From Escherichia phage vB_EcoM-fFiEco06: DNA of 64,000 bases. The stretch's first letter is position 1. Each line of letters begins with the position of its first letter. Both the position numbers and the translations under genes were made by a program. Shown here in pieces: positions 14,724 to 21,884 of this stretch. The stretch lies in the sequence record NC_054914.1. One strand, given 5' to 3'. The notes below the pieces were generated by a model. It was not told where the DNA came from and ran no database searches. It worked only from the letters and a program-made list of their open reading frames with translations.

Positions 14724-15688
14724 TGTATTCTTTAGAGGAATTTAATAATCAAGCAATAAACGCAGATTTCCAACGTAATAATATGTTCAGCTGTGTTTTT
14801 GCTACAACTCCATCAACTAAAAGCTCTTCGTTGATAAGTTCAATTAGCAACTTTTCTTATAATAACTTGGGCCTAAATTCAGATTGGTTAGGATTAACTC
14901 AAGGCGATATTAATCAGGGAATTACTACGCTAATTACAGCTGGCACACAAAAACTGATAAGAAAATCAGGGGTTAGTAAATATCTTATTGGTGCCATGAG
15001 TCAACGTACAGTTCAAAGTTTATTAGGCTCATTTACAGTTGGTACATATTTAATTGACTTCTTTAACGTGGCATATAACTCATCTGGATTGATGATATAC
15101 TCTGTAAAAATGCCAGAGAATAGATTATCCTATGAAACTGACTGGAACTATAATTCTCCTAATATTCGTATAACTGGGAGAGAATTAGACCCTTTGGTTA
15201 TTTCATTCAGAATGGATTCAGAAGCTTGTAACTATCGTGCAATGCAAGACTGGGTTAACGCTGTTCAAGACCCAGTAACTGGATTGCGTGCTTTGCCGCA
15301 AGATGTCGAGGCAGATATTCAGGTTAATCTTCATTCTCGCAATGGATTACCACATACTGCGGTGATGTTCACTGGATGCATTCCAGTGTCCGTAAGCGCT
15401 CCTGAGTTATCATATGATGGAGATAACCAAATAACTACATTTGATGTTACTTTTGCGTATAGAGTGATGCAGGCTGGAGCAGTTGATAGACAAGCTGCCC
15501 TTGAATGGCTTGAATCTGCTACTATAAATGGTATTCAAAGCGTTCTCGGAAATAGTGGAGGTGTTACTGGACTATCTAATTCGCTTTCACGACTTAGTAG
15601 ATTAGGGGGAACTGCAGGAAGCATTTCAAATATTAATACTATGACAGGAATTGTCAATTCGCAGAGTAAAATATTAGGAGCAATATAA
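14723..15688 (+). CDS. 54: Baseplate tail tube initiator gp54
   Basis: 321 aa; synteny. Confidence 0.9.
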   Translation: MYSLEEFNNQAINADFQRNNMFSCVFATTPSTKSSSLISSISNFSYNNLGLNSDWLGLTQGDINQGITTLITAGTQKLIRKSGVSKYLIGAMSQRTVQSLLGSFTVGTYLIDFFNVAYNSSGLMIYSVKMPENRLSYETDWNYNSPNIRITGRELDPLVISFRMDSEACNYRAMQDWVNAVQDPVTGLRALPQDVEADIQVNLHSRNGLPHTAVMFTGCIPVSVSAPELSYDGDNQITTFDVTFAYRVMQAGAVDRQAALEWLESATINGIQSVLGNSGGVTGLSNSLSRLSRLGGTAGSISNINTMTGIVNSQSKILGAI

Positions 15689-15692
15689 CAAT

Positions 15693-15710
15693 GGGGACCT
15701 TTCGGTCCCC
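15693..15710. terminator. Bidirectional terminator hairpin (ggggacc-tttc-ggtcccc) between gene 54 and the alt cluster
   Basis: 7-bp GC stem; T-run on the plus side. Confidence 0.6.
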
Positions 15711-15716
15711 ATATTT

Positions 15717-16007
15717 TTATTTACGGAATGAAATGAAAGCAGAAACTGAAGCAACTAAACTGTCTTCAATATAAACTTCAATTTTTACCGGAGCTTCTGA
15801 CTCAAATTTACCTGTTACTACACCTTGGAAAATACTTTCAGTCTGTTCTGGCTTTGAAAAATTTTCAGAAGGAAAAATTCCGAACTTTTTATCTGTTCCA
15901 AAAATTTTGATAAATTCATCGTAAACTGCTTCATTAAAAGCATTATCAGCAGGAATAACTCCTTCAACTACAAGTTCTTGACCTAAAAAGCGCAAAGAAG
16001 ATTTCAT
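15717..16007 (-). CDS. Hypothetical protein (T4 alt.-3-like position)
   Basis: 96-aa ORF; has its own early promoter/SD cassette (16016..16068). Confidence 0.65.
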   Translation of the reverse strand: MKSSLRFLGQELVVEGVIPADNAFNEAVYDEFIKIFGTDKKFGIFPSENFSKPEQTESIFQGVVTGKFESEAPVKIEVYIEDSLVASVSAFISFRK

Positions 16008-16015
16008 TTTGTGTT

Positions 16016-16068
16016 CCTCATGTTATGTCAGTAAGACTACTATAACACAACACGAGGGACTTGTAAAC
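16016..16068 (-). promoter_or_regulatory. Early promoter/stem-loop cassette, copy A (identical to 31830..31882)
   Basis: Minus strand: GTTTAC (-35), 17-bp spacer, TTATAGT (-10), then GAGG Shine-Dalgarno; 12-bp imperfect inverted repeat brackets the -10. Confidence 0.6.
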
Positions 16069-18125
16069 TACATTTTGAACTTTTTAGACATTCCGTTGAT
16101 GTTAACCAAAGAAGTCAAGATTTGAGAAACTTCATTTTCCTCTTCTTTTGATTCTTCTACAAGGAATTGATTAAATCCAGCCATTGGACGAACTTCACCA
16201 GTTTCCATTAGATGGTCTCCATCATATACTGATTCTTCTAATTGTTCAGAAGGAGGAACGATTGTACCTTCGATTAGATACTTGTTATAAGCAGTTTCTT
16301 TCATAAAGTACGTACTTACTTTATTAATCTTCAGTAAAATTCCACGTGGTAGAATAACTTCAGCTTCTGATGGAAATCCTGATAAATGACCTGGAACGAT
16401 AACTTTGATTCGCTCAGCTCCTTTAATTACCATACCCACGCTAGTTTCTGCATCTTCATTAGCATATGTAGAATGACTACCCATATGCATCAAATCTTCT
16501 GCATCAACGGAACCTTCTCCTTCACCAGAAAATACTGCGCCGGAATCATCTAGAGCCATATAGTTTTTACCATGCTCACCGAAGATATTTGGTTTAAGCG
16601 ATGTGGATACGAAGTTCTTGAAATAGAACATTTTATTTTCAATGTTATGACGCAAAGTTTTAAAGGTAACTTCTTGCCCACGGTAAAGTGTAGTTCCTGG
16701 AGGAAGAACTGATCCTTTGGCAAAGGCAGAATCTAACGTCTCGATGTGCTTAATAGCTCGTTCCATGTATTCTTCACGGGTAGAATCTGGTTTACCCAAA
16801 AGGAACGAGTTCATTTCAACATATGAATCTGCACAATAATCTTCAATTACATCAGATTCAGCCTGAGTCAGTCCTTTTGGAGCTACTTCGGTGCTTGCGT
16901 ATTCATATGCCTGGGCAGCAGATTCATTAATCAATTTATAAATGCCATTCATTACAAATTGAATAATAGCTGTCTTTTCATCTGGTGTGGTTTTAGAACC
17001 TTTAACTAAATCATTAATAATTTTCTTAATAACATCAAAGCTATTAGAAATATTAATGTCAGCAAGATCGCTTAAAATTTTATCAGTTTTATAATCAAAG
17101 AATTCTTTATTCTTTAAATATTCTTGAGAACCTTGATATGTTATATCGCTCTGCAACTTGATAGATGGATCACGTAAACGTGCATGGGCCAATGCAATAT
17201 GATTTCGGAAGCTTTCTAGTTCATAATCGCTAGATTTAAAACGAGAAGCACTTCTCATACCACCGATAGCTCCTTTGCTGAAGTTTGAACCAATCTGGAT
17301 AACGCCAGAGTTCATTGGTCCTTCTGCTTTATATACCGGAACTTTAGATTCAAACTCTTGATATTTCTTGGCAGCGAAGCTATCACCCTGTAGCGAAGCA
17401 TCGACAGTAGAATATTGAGCTTGTGCTGCTAATCGACGACTAATTTTAGTTTTCTGAATAACAGCTTGGTCCGTGCGCTTATCATTTTCTAAAGCAATAG
17501 AAGCAGCAACAGCGACAGCTTTAGGAACAGCATTTCCTGTTTTAACGTCTACATAAACATCACCGACCTTTGATTCAACTTTTGTGAATAACTCAGTTGA
17601 AATGGGAGGTACACCTGGAATGTCTTCTAAATTGGCATTTTTACGGTAAACCATAATATATGCGTACTTTTTATCGTAATCCCAGATTTCCTTTAAAAGA
17701 ACATATCGACCTGCTCCTTTAGTACGTACTAAACGGTCAGCAATAACTTGCATTTGACGAGCTGCGCCATTTGTTTTACTCTTTAGTACACGGAATAAGC
17801 ACGCGTCAATTTTATACTGCTTCATTGTTTGAAGAGCAGTATCAAAAACGGCATTAATGACACCAATTGGATTTCCACCCAAGTTTTTAAGCTTAACTAA
17901 TGATAGTTTCTCATTAACACCTATCATTACGATATGCATCATTTTATCGCCTGGCTTAACGTTTTTATTCGTATCACCACCAGAGGTGTATGTACAAAAT
18001 CTAAATCCAGGAAGCACGCTTTCTTCGCCGGCTTGAATAGCAAAAATTTGTGGTATTTTATGCTTAGGATTTAAGTTAACAACCGGCGCCGAAGCGCCGT
18101 CAAATAATTCTGTAATAAGTTCCAT
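16068..18125 (-). CDS. Alt-like ADP-ribosyltransferase, diverged tandem paralog
   Basis: 685 aa; N-terminus MELITELFD… nearly identical to Alt; R-S-E ART motifs (LYRGQ, FVSTSL, EAEVILPRG). Confidence 0.85.
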   Translation of the reverse strand: MELITELFDGASAPVVNLNPKHKIPQIFAIQAGEESVLPGFRFCTYTSGGDTNKNVKPGDKMMHIVMIGVNEKLSLVKLKNLGGNPIGVINAVFDTALQTMKQYKIDACLFRVLKSKTNGAARQMQVIADRLVRTKGAGRYVLLKEIWDYDKKYAYIMVYRKNANLEDIPGVPPISTELFTKVESKVGDVYVDVKTGNAVPKAVAVAASIALENDKRTDQAVIQKTKISRRLAAQAQYSTVDASLQGDSFAAKKYQEFESKVPVYKAEGPMNSGVIQIGSNFSKGAIGGMRSASRFKSSDYELESFRNHIALAHARLRDPSIKLQSDITYQGSQEYLKNKEFFDYKTDKILSDLADINISNSFDVIKKIINDLVKGSKTTPDEKTAIIQFVMNGIYKLINESAAQAYEYASTEVAPKGLTQAESDVIEDYCADSYVEMNSFLLGKPDSTREEYMERAIKHIETLDSAFAKGSVLPPGTTLYRGQEVTFKTLRHNIENKMFYFKNFVSTSLKPNIFGEHGKNYMALDDSGAVFSGEGEGSVDAEDLMHMGSHSTYANEDAETSVGMVIKGAERIKVIVPGHLSGFPSEAEVILPRGILLKINKVSTYFMKETAYNKYLIEGTIVPPSEQLEESVYDGDHLMETGEVRPMAGFNQFLVEESKEEENEVSQILTSLVNINGMSKKFKM

Positions 18126-18128
18126 GAT

Positions 18129-20183
18129 TTATCCTTGAACGAACTTGTAAGGCATGTTTGCAATATCTATACAAGACGCAATAATTCCAAGAGATGATTC
18201 TACTTTCTGTTTAACGTTTGATGAAACAAATGATGTAAAGTCAACTCTGTCTTCTATTTCAATATCACCTGTCATTGCAACTACTTCGCCGGTTTCCATT
18301 AGACGGTCACCGTCATAAATTACCGATTCGGTGAGTTCTTCTGTGGTCATAACTTCAGCTTGAATAAGCTTGTTGTTAGTTTTAACTGTTCCATCATTGT
18401 AAGATGCATCGGTTATTTTATTAACTTTGACCATTAATCCACGTGGCAAAATGACTTCCATTTCATTTGAAGGTGCTAAACTTCCACCTGGTAAAACAAC
18501 ATTGACTTTATCAGCCCCAGTAATAACCCATCCAATTCCAACTAAATTATCGCTAGAATTTACTAGTCCTTCATCAGTTTTATCAATAGAAACACTTAAA
18601 CGCTTTTCGTCTGGTAAAACACCCACAGATGAATCAGTCATCCAGGTACCAAAAATATTTGGATATAATGATGTTGACACAAAATTTCTAAAATAAAAAA
18701 CTCGATTTTTTACCAGTGCTTCATATATTGAAGGTAACATTCGTTGTGAACGATACAAAGTAATACCTTTTGGTAATCGTTCACCATTTTTAAAGGCAGA
18801 ATCTAAATTATCAATAGCTTTTTCTATATCAGATGCTGTCAAAATACTTGTACGCTCATCTGGATTATATAATCCCAAAAGAGCGTTATTTATGTCTACA
18901 TATCCTGAACTTACGTATTCACGAATTCCGCGTTTTTGTGCCGGTGTGTATTTAGATGAATCTTTATTTTCGACTATAGGATGTAGTGACCATCCAGCGG
19001 TAAGAGCATATCCACGCAATTCTCTTCGAATAATCTTTGTTTTTATTGCATTCCAAGAATTTTGTACTAACTCATTCGCAGCATCTTGATTTAAATGCGA
19101 ATGCTTGTTAATGTTTCTTTCTAACCAAGCACCTTTATATTTTTCTAAAGTATCATCAACTATAGAAGCAATAGTTTCTAAAGTTTTTATTGAAGTAATA
19201 GATTCTTTTCGTAATCTTTCTAAAGCTTTATTTTTTATTTCTGCATTAACATCAGATTCTTTATCTTCAGGAATTATAGAAGCTTCTCTGAATGCCATTC
19301 CAGCTGTAACACTACTAAGAGCATTCTCTAATGCAAATCCTGAAGTAGAAATAACAGTTAATTCATTAGCGTCAGAAATTAAAGGAGCGTCAGCAGGTTT
19401 ATTTAATTCTGCTGCTGAAGCCTCAAATTTTTGAAACATCGGCGTTTCAAATCTAGAAGATTCCAATGATTGACTTTGCGCAATTGCTCTACGGGAAATT
19501 TTAACTTTAACGATTACAGCTTGGTCAGAACGTTTATCATTTTCTTGCGCAATAGATGCTGCAATTGCCTCATTTTTAGTTACTTGAGCTCCAGTATCTT
19601 TATTGATATAAACATCACCGACCTTCGATTCAACTTTAGTAAAGAGCTCAGTACTAATTTCCGGAACTCCCGGAATGTCTTCTAGTGATACATTTTTGCG
19701 ATGTATAAGAATATATGCATACTTTTTATCGTAATCCCAGAGTTCCTTAAGAAGGACATATCTGCCACCTGAACGACTACGGATAAGTCTATCAGCAATA
19801 ACTTGAATTTGTCGAGCTTGACCAGCGGTTTTAGACTTAAGAATACGAAGCATACAGGCATCAATTTTATACTGACGCATTGTTTGCATCGCAACAGTAA
19901 AAACTGAATTGATATAATTAATTGGGCTTGGACCAAGACCTTTTAATTTAGCAATTGAACCTTTAGCAGTTAATGTAAAAGGAACAATATGCATCATTTT
20001 ATCGCCCATCTTTAAATCGCGATTAGTATCACCTCCAGATGTATAGGTACATAAACGAAAGCCTGGTTGTTCAATTGCATCATCAACATGAACTGAAAAA
20101 ATTTGCGGTATTTTCTTCTTTGGATTTAAGTTTGTAATCGGAAGAGTAGTATCTTCGTCAAATAATTCTGTAATAAGTTCCAT
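18129..20183 (-). CDS. alt: Alt ADP-ribosyltransferase (packaged internal head protein)
   Basis: About 684 aa from the second Met; ART motifs LYRSQ, FVSTSL, EMEVILPRG; N-terminal ITE prohead-protease-type site. Confidence 0.88.
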   Translation of the reverse strand: MELITELFDEDTTLPITNLNPKKKIPQIFSVHVDDAIEQPGFRLCTYTSGGDTNRDLKMGDKMMHIVPFTLTAKGSIAKLKGLGPSPINYINSVFTVAMQTMRQYKIDACMLRILKSKTAGQARQIQVIADRLIRSRSGGRYVLLKELWDYDKKYAYILIHRKNVSLEDIPGVPEISTELFTKVESKVGDVYINKDTGAQVTKNEAIAASIAQENDKRSDQAVIVKVKISRRAIAQSQSLESSRFETPMFQKFEASAAELNKPADAPLISDANELTVISTSGFALENALSSVTAGMAFREASIIPEDKESDVNAEIKNKALERLRKESITSIKTLETIASIVDDTLEKYKGAWLERNINKHSHLNQDAANELVQNSWNAIKTKIIRRELRGYALTAGWSLHPIVENKDSSKYTPAQKRGIREYVSSGYVDINNALLGLYNPDERTSILTASDIEKAIDNLDSAFKNGERLPKGITLYRSQRMLPSIYEALVKNRVFYFRNFVSTSLYPNIFGTWMTDSSVGVLPDEKRLSVSIDKTDEGLVNSSDNLVGIGWVITGADKVNVVLPGGSLAPSNEMEVILPRGLMVKVNKITDASYNDGTVKTNNKLIQAEVMTTEELTESVIYDGDRLMETGEVVAMTGDIEIEDRVDFTSFVSSNVKQKVESSLGIIASCIDIANMPYKFVQG

Positions 20184-20206
20184 CATAGCCTCTCTAGTGT
20201 TTATTC

Positions 20207-20214
20207 TATTTATA
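20207..20214 (-). promoter_or_regulatory. Late promoter TATAAATA (minus strand) upstream of alt
   Basis: Plus-strand tatttata about 25 nt upstream of the alt start. Confidence 0.55.
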
Positions 20215-20235
20215 AAATTAAAGGCCCGAAGGCCT

Positions 20236-20424
20236 TTAATAATCTAGTGGTAAGAGAGTACGGTATATTTCAAACTTTGGACCTTTTTCATAGGCATCAA
20301 ATGTTTCTGTGAATTTATTATAAGCGTATGCATCTACAAATTCGAGAATGACTTGTGATACAGAAGTAGAAACATCTCCACCTTCTTTTTGAGCAATGAC
20401 AATTGTTTCTAAGTAAGCTTTCAT
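20236..20424 (-). CDS. Hypothetical small protein
   Basis: 62-aa ORF, overlaps the gene 30 stop. Confidence 0.5.
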   Translation of the reverse strand: MKAYLETIVIAQKEGGDVSTSVSQVILEFVDAYAYNKFTETFDAYEKGPKFEIYRTLLPLDY

Positions 20425-21884
20425 AAACCAGTTACCTCATGAAAATCACCAAATACATCCTCGAATGTATTAGCTTTAGTTTTATCTTCACGCAAACGAA
20501 TCGCAATCGGAAGAAATAATTTAACGTAATCAGTGCGGCCATCAGATTTTAACCAACCGTTGCATTCGCACTCTAGAATTTTTCCAATATAATAATTTTG
20601 GTTTTCCATAATGCGAGTACGGTCAAGTTCATGCGATTTTACACCGGCTTTATCTTTTAAGCCTGAACCAGCATTTACTTTAATTTTTCCACACTCTGAC
20701 TCAAGAATAAATCCACCTGCTTTAGTAGGGTCTTTACGGTGAGGATAAATTCCTACAATTTTTAAATCAACATCAATTACTTCTTTAAATTTATAGAGAT
20801 TTTTTGAACGAGCATTTTCCCATAATCCATCGATATTTTTGAGAATAATACCTTCAAGACCTTGGTCAATATACTTTTTATAAATTACCTTGGCTTCGTC
20901 TAGGTTATTTACTACCTGGTTTTCAATTAAAATTACTTTATCATAGCCTGATGTCATTTGTTCTAGTTTAGAAAAACGTACATCATATTTCAAACGAAAT
21001 GCAGGAAGACCGTATATTTCTACCAACGGTACATAATCCCAGACCTGAAACTTCATGCATTGTGCTTCTTTTTCAGAAATGGTTCCCTTTAAAGATTTAT
21101 TGGCGATGCCATTAGATGCAGTACGTGATTCAGCTACTTCGGCGAATTCTTTAGCTTTACTGTTTTCAGGATAAGCATCAAAAAGAAAATCTAGGCCTTC
21201 TGGCTCCTTTTCAACTTGCTCATGGTATACCAATTCGCCATCAATTAACACACCTTCTGGATGAATCTGGCGAGCTTCTGCAGTCATTTTGATTAACTCT
21301 TCTTTGAGAAGATCTAATCCTAGATATTCATTACCAGCTCGTGATAAAAGACGAACATCATCTAATTCATCACCTCTGACTTCAGCAAAGCACCGAGCTC
21401 CATCAGCTTTTAATTGGGCAAAGGCTGGAAATTTGATATTCTTGCTAATGCCTTTTTCATCATAAGAACTTGCCAGCATTTGAGGTTGTTCAGGAATTAA
21501 ACCTGGCCAAACTTTGTTTGCAATAGATACTGATGCACCGCATTCAAGGTCTCGCATCATCACCCGACGCAAAACTTCAACATCATCTTTTTTACCGTCA
21601 GCAATATATCCAGTCAATTCCTCAATTGCCGCATTTCCAGTCAATTTCCGAGTAGCTAATGTGAATTCAATGAAGTCAAGCATATCGGTAAGAGTCAACA
21701 TTCCAAAACTCTGGGTAGCAATACCAGGTTTAGGCCATTTCTTGATATAATACTGTAACCCACGAGAATAAGTTAGACGATATACTCGTTTAAGCAATTC
21801 ATTATCTTTATTCTTTTCAAGAATTGCTTGCTTCTGCTTAGTTGAACCAATAGATGCTATTTTGTTCAGAATTTTAAGAATCAT
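20421..21884 (-). CDS. 30: ATP-dependent DNA ligase gp30
   Basis: 487 aa; adenylation motif KADGAR. Confidence 0.93.
   Translation of the reverse strand: MILKILNKIASIGSTKQKQAILEKNKDNELLKRVYRLTYSRGLQYYIKKWPKPGIATQSFGMLTLTDMLDFIEFTLATRKLTGNAAIEELTGYIADGKKDDVEVLRRVMMRDLECGASVSIANKVWPGLIPEQPQMLASSYDEKGISKNIKFPAFAQLKADGARCFAEVRGDELDDVRLLSRAGNEYLGLDLLKEELIKMTAEARQIHPEGVLIDGELVYHEQVEKEPEGLDFLFDAYPENSKAKEFAEVAESRTASNGIANKSLKGTISEKEAQCMKFQVWDYVPLVEIYGLPAFRLKYDVRFSKLEQMTSGYDKVILIENQVVNNLDEAKVIYKKYIDQGLEGIILKNIDGLWENARSKNLYKFKEVIDVDLKIVGIYPHRKDPTKAGGFILESECGKIKVNAGSGLKDKAGVKSHELDRTRIMENQNYYIGKILECECNGWLKSDGRTDYVKLFLPIAIRLREDKTKANTFEDVFGDFHEVTGL

Follow-up and report, generated by a model that had tools for sequence, protein, structure and literature searches.

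A second full-length Alt-type ADP-ribosyltransferase gene next to alt, intact in most Tequatrovirus genomes and decayed in T4

Alt, an NAD-arginine mono-ADP-ribosyltransferase (ART) packaged in the head of phage T4, targets Arg265 on the alpha subunit of RNA polymerase. Alt is reported to modify other host proteins as well (PMC5512222). Each head contains about 40 copies of it (PMC5694885, PMC9026906), and the gp21 prohead protease cuts it at ITE-6 and LTE-619, which yields a mature protein of 68.2 kDa (PMC5694885). Next to alt, T4 has two small genes, alt.-1 and alt.-2, which the T4 record explains by an old duplication of the beginning of alt; the T6 record regards the intact gene found there as an apparent insertion in alt.-2. 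In 2006, Nolan et al. classed alt.-1 and alt.-2 as paralogous duplications of alt and described a full-length duplicate of alt in Aeromonas phage 44RR (PMC1524935). Here we analyze a stretch of 64,000 nucleotides from Escherichia phage vB_EcoM-fFiEco06 (NC_054914.1), referred to below as the window, in which two full-length Alt-type genes lie in tandem on the minus strand. The upstream gene is called A (slot 1, or slot A) and the downstream gene B, and catalytic motifs are given in B residue numbering. As an annotation the feature is already known, and the paralogy was noted in 2006: many records, including RefSeq, name both genes Alt-like RNA polymerase ADP-ribosyltransferase, and the record of the Tequatrovirus Escherichia phage vB_EcoM-fHoEco02 (MG781191), which is 100% identical to the window over 15600..20500, notes the similarity of B to Alt.-1 and Alt.-2. 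Our analysis adds the existence of two forms of slot A, and the finding that the amino-terminal domains (N-domains) of Alt proteins cluster by genome and the effector parts by type across genera.

The pair and the signals that frame it are the following.

18129..20186, minus strand: gene A, alt orthologue, T4-type allele (98% identity to T4 Alt; PF03496; phrog_802).
18126..18136, minus strand: A-B junction, read from the sequence, with AAGGA at 18132..18136, the A stop codon TAA at 18129..18131 and the spacer at 18126..18128.
16068..18125, minus strand: gene B, second Alt-family ART, 685 amino acids (open reading frame, homology, Pfam, PHROG and structure model).
20207..20214, minus strand: T4-type late promoter TATAAATA, exact match.

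Both genes are 685 codons long when taken as open reading frames, in agreement with the original prediction, which was made from the sequence of the window. Two in-frame ATGs open gene A (20181..20186, minus strand). Its reading frame encodes 685 amino acids from the ATG at 20186 (MMELITE) and 684 from the in-frame ATG at 20183; the deposited record uses the second of these, for which the Shine-Dalgarno sequence GAGAGG (20189..20194, minus strand) is also better spaced. The stop codon of A is separated from the ATG of B by exactly 3 nucleotides (nt), and AAGGA, 6 nt upstream of that ATG, is B's own Shine-Dalgarno sequence. The single late promoter predicted ahead of the pair is present as well: on the minus strand between 9420 and 25894, TATAAATA occurs as a perfect copy only at 20207..20214, where, going by what is known of T4, it would function as a late promoter.

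Gene A is the orthologue of T4 alt, its product being 98% identical to T4 Alt (NP_049811). The product of gene B is a distant paralogue: BLASTP aligns it to A at 41% identity over 719 columns (E = 2e-158) and to T4 Alt at 41% identity over 719 columns (E = 5e-157). This identity is unevenly distributed: residues 1-235 are 68% identical, residues 240-430 about 11%, the ART domain 39% and the C-terminal tail 40%. The central regions are indeed strongly diverged, as first proposed, whereas the N-termini, which had been called near-identical, are better described as similar. Membership of B in the Alt family is clear from profile searches. Pfam family PF03496 (ADPrib_exo_Tox) matches A with E = 5.5e-35 and B with E = 4.4e-20, the Alt-like family phrog_802 matches both proteins from end to end (A, E = 1e-261; B, E = 1.7e-255, covering positions 2-674 of 674 in the profile), and homologues of B carry precomputed Pfam domains PF03496 and, at the N-terminus, PF26846. 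Searches of Pfam with the isolated N-domain, variable domain and tail returned nothing meaningful, NCBIfam had no match for A, B or the N-domain, and the B sequence found no solved structure at E <= 0.01.

Both proteins share a layout consisting of a 6-residue ITE propeptide, an alpha/beta N-domain of about 220 amino acids, a helical variable domain of about 200 amino acids, an R-S-ExE ART domain of about 150-190 amino acids, an L-x-E site and an acidic propeptide of 54-65 amino acids. In B, the predicted boundaries place the first propeptide at residues 1-6, the N-domain up to about residue 225, the variable domain at about 240-470, the ART domain at about 475-625 and the C-terminal propeptide at 632-685. 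The AlphaFold model of B has a mean predicted local distance difference test score (pLDDT) of 72, with about 80-90 in the ART core and a disordered tail, and structure comparison assigns the modelled domain to the ART fold of the R-S-E clade (C3, VIP2 and Vis type). Modelled alone, the N-domain reached a pLDDT of 84 and a predicted template modelling score of 0.82, and its structural hits were mixed (GNATs, an RNase E subdomain, R3H, SepF, IF3-C, TusA and methyltransferases). Three elements form the predicted active site of B.

16680..16682, minus strand: B Arg482, the R of R-S-ExE, within LYRGQ (invariant, 22 homologues).
16599..16607, minus strand: B Ser507-Thr508-Ser509, the STS motif (alignment, 22 homologues).
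16359..16367, minus strand: B Glu587-Ala-Glu589, the ExE motif (E589 takes the position of the essential T4 Alt glutamate in the alignment).

All motif strings quoted in the original prediction are found, and the R-S-ExE motifs are intact in both proteins: LYRSQ in A and LYRGQ in B, FVSTSL in both, EMEVILPRG in A and EAEVILPRG in B. In an alignment of 22 homologues, R482, S507, S509, E587 and E589 are invariant and T508 nearly so. In T4 Alt, a mutation published as E577A eliminates activity (PMC11404850). Residue 577 corresponds to the second glutamate of EME only when counted from the upstream ATG; the same residue is E576 in RefSeq numbering and its equivalent in B is E589.

T4 itself holds the remains of B. 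Compared by BLASTP, T4 alt.-1 (NP_049810) corresponds to B residues 1-56 at 95% identity and alt.-2 (NP_049809) to residues 62-116 at 98%. The earlier statement that T4 has a single Alt is correct as regards intact genes, alt.-1 and alt.-2 being no more than fragments of B. Two lesions separate the T4 sequence (L001 5066-5451) from that of the window. One A has been lost from a run of five (A5 to A4) near 17966, which breaks the frame between alt.-1 and alt.-2, and most of the gene is missing.

16088..17786, minus strand: 1,699-bp segment lacking in T4 and in 90 further records (BLASTN with the T4 region, sequence reads and junction survey).

The deletion is bounded by the 9-bp direct repeats CTAAAGAGT (17778..17786) and CTAAAAAGT (16079..16087), of which a single 9-nt copy is left in T4; correspondingly, BLASTN of the T4 region against the window gives a 9-nt overlap at the deletion junction. 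This comparison shows that T4 carries a decayed remnant of a full-length B and indicates that the deletion took place in the T4 lineage. The opposite polarity, in which B is an insertion as worded in the T6 record, is rejected on the basis of full-length homology to Alt, a counterpart in another genus, and the frameshift and microhomology junction in T4. We also reject a laboratory artefact of T4 as the source of the deletion: the same junction is found in 91 records, many of them environmental isolates, and the deletion is therefore a natural allele.

An intact B is the majority state in Tequatrovirus and T4 is the outlier. A translated search detected full-length B at no less than 90% identity in 400 phage records, T2 and T6 among them, many annotated as Alt-like, and B is kept in about four-fifths of the records of T4's genus. 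The second copy is thus not unusual. The protein cluster that best matches B has 772 member sequences. Truncated B-type proteins of 624, 528 and 415 amino acids also occur in public assemblies (97-99% identity; 36, 7 and 12 members, respectively); they may reflect further independent decay, or breaks in assembly or gene calling.

We measured selection on B in six genomes (the window, T2, BF15, HY01, OM02 and Sf23), leaving out Shigella phage sb4, whose fragmented alt genes look like assembly frameshifts and whose ligase and gp48 are split too. Across these genomes the B proteins are 97.5-98.8% identical, and the ratio of nonsynonymous to synonymous substitution rates (dN/dS) is 0.040 at a synonymous divergence (dS) of 0.21. 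Among the segments, the ratio is lowest in the N-domain (0.011) and the tail (0.014) and higher in the ART domain (0.035) and the variable domain (0.082). Every part of B is under strong purifying selection.

The features that would commit B to the head are also in place, and comprise two predicted cleavage sites.

18108..18116, minus strand: B codons 4-6 (I-T-E), with predicted gp21 cleavage after Glu6, the same as T4 Alt ITE-6.
16233..16241, minus strand: B Leu629-Glu-Glu631, predicted C-terminal gp21 site, which aligns with T4 Alt LTE-619.

The ITE prohead-protease-like site was expected to open both proteins and does so, at ITE-6, and in a motif scan A keeps both of the T4 Alt sites, ITE-6 and LTE-619. 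In B, LEE-631 is followed by a conserved SVYDGDxLMETGEV, and the predicted mature protein has a mass of 69.1 kDa. The C-terminal propeptides (A residues 620-684, B residues 632-685) are acidic, and removal of both the N- and the C-terminal propeptide shifts the calculated isoelectric point from 6.0 to 7.3 in B and from 5.8 to 8.2 in A, a change that might keep the enzymes inert or position them in the DNA-filled head. To our knowledge, neither the N-domain nor the two protease sites are present in ModA and ModB, the T4 ARTs that are not packaged. This absence, together with the conservation of the N-domain and its genome-specific clustering, suggests that the N-domain has a role in packaging.

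Slot A of the window (18129..20183) was compared with those of T2 (L003 904-2997), T6 (L010 10363-12456) and L005-L008. Slot A exists in two forms in Tequatrovirus, a T4-type of 682-684 amino acids and a T2-type of 697 amino acids, which are about 70% identical overall. Residues 1-250 are identical between the two forms and the last 90 nearly so, whereas most of the variable region is only 10-36% identical and most of the ART domain 60-75%. Only 173 records contain the T4-type core at 90% identity or more. At the same locus, the Dhakavirus QL01 (L009 864-7124) carries three tandem alt genes with 3-nt spacers. N-domains cluster by genome, with 68% identity between A and B in Tequatrovirus, 67-89% among the QL01 slots and 43-46% between the genera. 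Effector parts cluster by type across genera: the ART domain of T2-type A is 94% identical to that of QL01 slot 1, and B is closer to QL01 slot 3 (ART domain 59%, tail 65%, variable domain 44%) than to the A of its own genome (39%, 40% and 11%, respectively). Within QL01, slots 2 and 3 have N-domains that are 89% identical, whereas the remainder is 3-47% identical.

Judged by these groupings, B is an old and distinct lineage of the Alt family, because its effector part goes with QL01 slot 3 and not with the A of the same genome. The QL01 slots 2 and 3 show, at the level of sequence, that homogenization of the N-domain or reuse of this module occurs in the family. The overall pattern indicates an exchange of cassettes between genera combined with homogenization of the N-domain within a genome, and on this evidence the locus appears to be an array of exchangeable effector cassettes placed on a genome-specific N-terminal module. 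A broader model, to which we give roughly even odds, is that the alt locus provides one to three slots for injected effectors, each made of a genome-specific packaging N-domain, which stays similar among the slots of one genome, and a cassette of variable and ART domains exchanged between genera, that B is a conserved second injected enzyme with targets other than those of Alt, and that T4 has lost B.

The original prediction also proposed that identity at the 5' ends of the two genes would allow gene conversion. An identical run does exist, with a length of 27-28 nt instead of the 29 first given, and it is interrupted in T2 and OM02, which have CTC instead of CTT. Other identical runs between A and B measure 14-22 nt and fall on invariant peptides with low-degeneracy codons. 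With third-codon-position identity at 40-60% in most N-terminal windows and identical runs this short (14-28 nt), we reject recent gene conversion between A and B for this genome.

We estimate at about 0.6 the probability that B is an arginine ADP-ribosyltransferase which is made late, packaged in the head, trimmed by the protease and injected as a second enzyme beside Alt, with targets unlike those of Alt. By analogy with T4 Alt, A and B would be incorporated into the prohead core and processed by gp21 at each end; once injected along with the DNA, they would ADP-ribosylate arginines of host proteins during the first minutes of infection. B most likely acts on a set of host proteins other than that of A, since its variable domain and active-site loops are unlike A's. 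An aromatic residue (F or Y) is found 3-4 residues before ExE in B and in QL01 slot 3, in a place where both types of A have an aliphatic residue, and the acidic insert between STS and ExE is longer in B than in A. In the C3 and iota toxins the ARTT-loop region contributes to substrate choice, so that these differences give a hint, though only a hint, of different targets.

Several observations weigh against this proposal. T4 Alt is reported to modify host proteins other than RNA polymerase (PMC5512222), so the targets of A and B could overlap, and sequence divergence is the one ground on which distinct targets are proposed. The late promoter has near-matches within A (for example TATAGATA, 18164..18171), which may provide B with a separate transcription start. 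T4 and 90 other records lack B and truncated forms exist, which means that B is dispensable in at least some conditions. A literature search found no study of the transcription, translation, packaging, cleavage, injection, activity or targets of B and no published virion proteomics covering it, and the paper on the Yersinia fPS phages does not mention B.

Part of the same evidence can be read differently. B could be redundant: it would be packaged, would modify what Alt modifies, RNA polymerase alpha included, and would be kept only for dosage or robustness. The two copies have the same class of R-S-ExE catalytic motif and share locus, promoter and processing motifs, T4 Alt is described as having the wider target range just cited (PMC5512222), and T4 grows without B. 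Redundancy nevertheless seems unlikely to us when identity between A and B is as low as about 11% (variable domain) and 39% (ART domain), when the residues just before ExE differ in kind, and when the B lineage has been kept distinct across genera (QL01 slot 3) instead of being homogenized, with a variable domain that is still under strong purifying selection (dN/dS 0.08). Somewhat less probable again is a mainly structural or non-catalytic protein of the prohead core or head interior, for instance one setting head contents, in which ART activity is secondary or lost. Such a role would fit with the N-domain and C-terminal tail being the most constrained segments (dN/dS 0.011 and 0.014), with the clustering of N-domains by genome, expected if they co-evolve with the head core of their phage, and with the report that T4 alt mutants package more DNA (PMC3012670). 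It would leave unexplained why all catalytic residues are invariant and why the ART domain has a dN/dS of 0.035; a purely structural protein would not need R-S-ExE.

The proposal that B is late but unpackaged and acts inside the cell late in infection, or is unexpressed and on its way to loss as in T4, appears to us about as improbable as a structural role. B has been lost in 91 records, truncated variants exist, and the gene has no perfect late promoter of its own. Decay is difficult to reconcile with a dN/dS of 0.04 at a dS of 0.21 and a frame that is intact in 400 records, or with a good Shine-Dalgarno sequence at a coupling distance of 3 nt; and B keeps the N-domain and both protease sites that, as far as we know the family, ModA and ModB lack. 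We favor the injected second enzyme with its own targets. Two outcomes would have argued against the original prediction, and the data go the other way in both cases: the downstream copy has a clear ART profile match and fold, and T4, far from sharing a characterized intact second copy with its relatives, has no intact one.

The surroundings of the pair include the following elements.

20236..20424, minus strand: alt.1 (Pfam Phage_blade PF24647, E = 2e-29).
20217..20240, minus strand: hairpin with a UUCG loop and a 10-bp stem, followed by AAUUUUAU (sequence; fold energy -13.5 kcal/mol, z = -2.9).
16039..16067, minus strand: sigma-70/T4-early-like promoter, TTTACA-N17-TATAGT with an upstream TG (consensus match only).
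15717..16007, minus strand: alt.-3, 96 amino acids, DUF5498 (PF17602, E = 5e-64; phrog_1739).
15691..15712, both strands: bidirectional hairpin terminator between alt.-3 and gene 54, 9 pairs of which 6 are GC (terminator scan, both strands).

Gene order matches that of T4, with the pair located between gene 30/alt.1 and alt.-3/gene 54. We infer that A and B form a late-transcribed tandem pair in a unit reaching from TATAAATA (20207..20214) as far as the hairpin terminator (15691..15712), and this unit probably takes in alt.-3, the last gene before the terminator, which may thus be co-transcribed with A and B. Within A and B, the only variants of the late promoter have 1 mismatch, and upstream of B there is neither a perfect late promoter nor a convincing MotA box. 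The hairpin at 20217..20240, absent from the list of the consensus terminator scan, likely terminates the early unit that lies upstream, formed by gene 30 and alt.1. Between the B stop codon and alt.-3, the element at 16039..16067 has the top promoter-like score within 15500..20600 and is retained in T4, and alt.-3 may have this early promoter of its own besides any late read-through. The families of the flanking small genes alt.1 (PF24647) and alt.-3 (PF17602) are named but uncharacterized.

The reference phage for ADP-ribosylation, T4, is without a gene that most of its genus, including T2 and T6, keeps under strong purifying selection. Should B be injected and act on targets of its own, the early takeover by natural T-even phages involves at least one modification system more than the T4 model. 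If the locus is an array as outlined above, T4 Alt would be a minority slot-1 allele (173 of about 500 Tequatrovirus-like records at a core identity of at least 90%), and fifty years of T4 work would have overlooked some of the chemistry by which this group normally takes over its host early in infection. The combination of a genome-specific N-domain with exchangeable effector parts also suggests which part of the Alt proteins serves packaging, and could guide the design of head-delivered proteins.

One of the known systems nearest to B is T4 Alt. B is colinear with it over the full length, from the N-domain through the variable and R-S-ExE ART domains to the C-terminal tail, has ITE-6 and an L-x-E aligned with LTE-619, and lies at the same locus behind the same late promoter; it differs in its overall identity of only 41% (variable domain about 11%, ART domain 39%), in the aromatic residue before ExE and in the longer acidic insert after STS. 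T4 alt.-1 and alt.-2 are the same gene at the same position, broken by the loss of 1 nt and the 1,699-bp deletion, whereas B is intact. Among other Tevenvirinae, the QL01 array has the same locus, orientation and 3-nt spacers, and of all relatives outside the genus its last gene is nearest to B (overall identity 48%, ART domain 59%); it has three copies instead of two, and the N-domains of its slots 2 and 3 are 89% identical, as against 68% for A and B. Bacterial ART toxins of the C3-like and VIP2/iota-like types, Arg- or Asn-specific (Vis, C3bot2, VIP2 and CPILE-a), are more distant, with 18-22% sequence identity; they have neither the phage N-domain nor the helical variable domain nor propeptides removed by the protease, and are secreted or delivered by other routes. 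Finally, phage proteins in which a conserved targeting part, which gp21 removes or trims, is joined to diverse, exchangeable injected cargo (PMC3012670, PMC9026906) follow the same logic as the Alt proteins and have no sequence relationship to them. Unlike in those proteins, the conserved part of Alt is a folded domain of about 220 amino acids that stays on the mature protein, accompanied by short propeptides at both ends.

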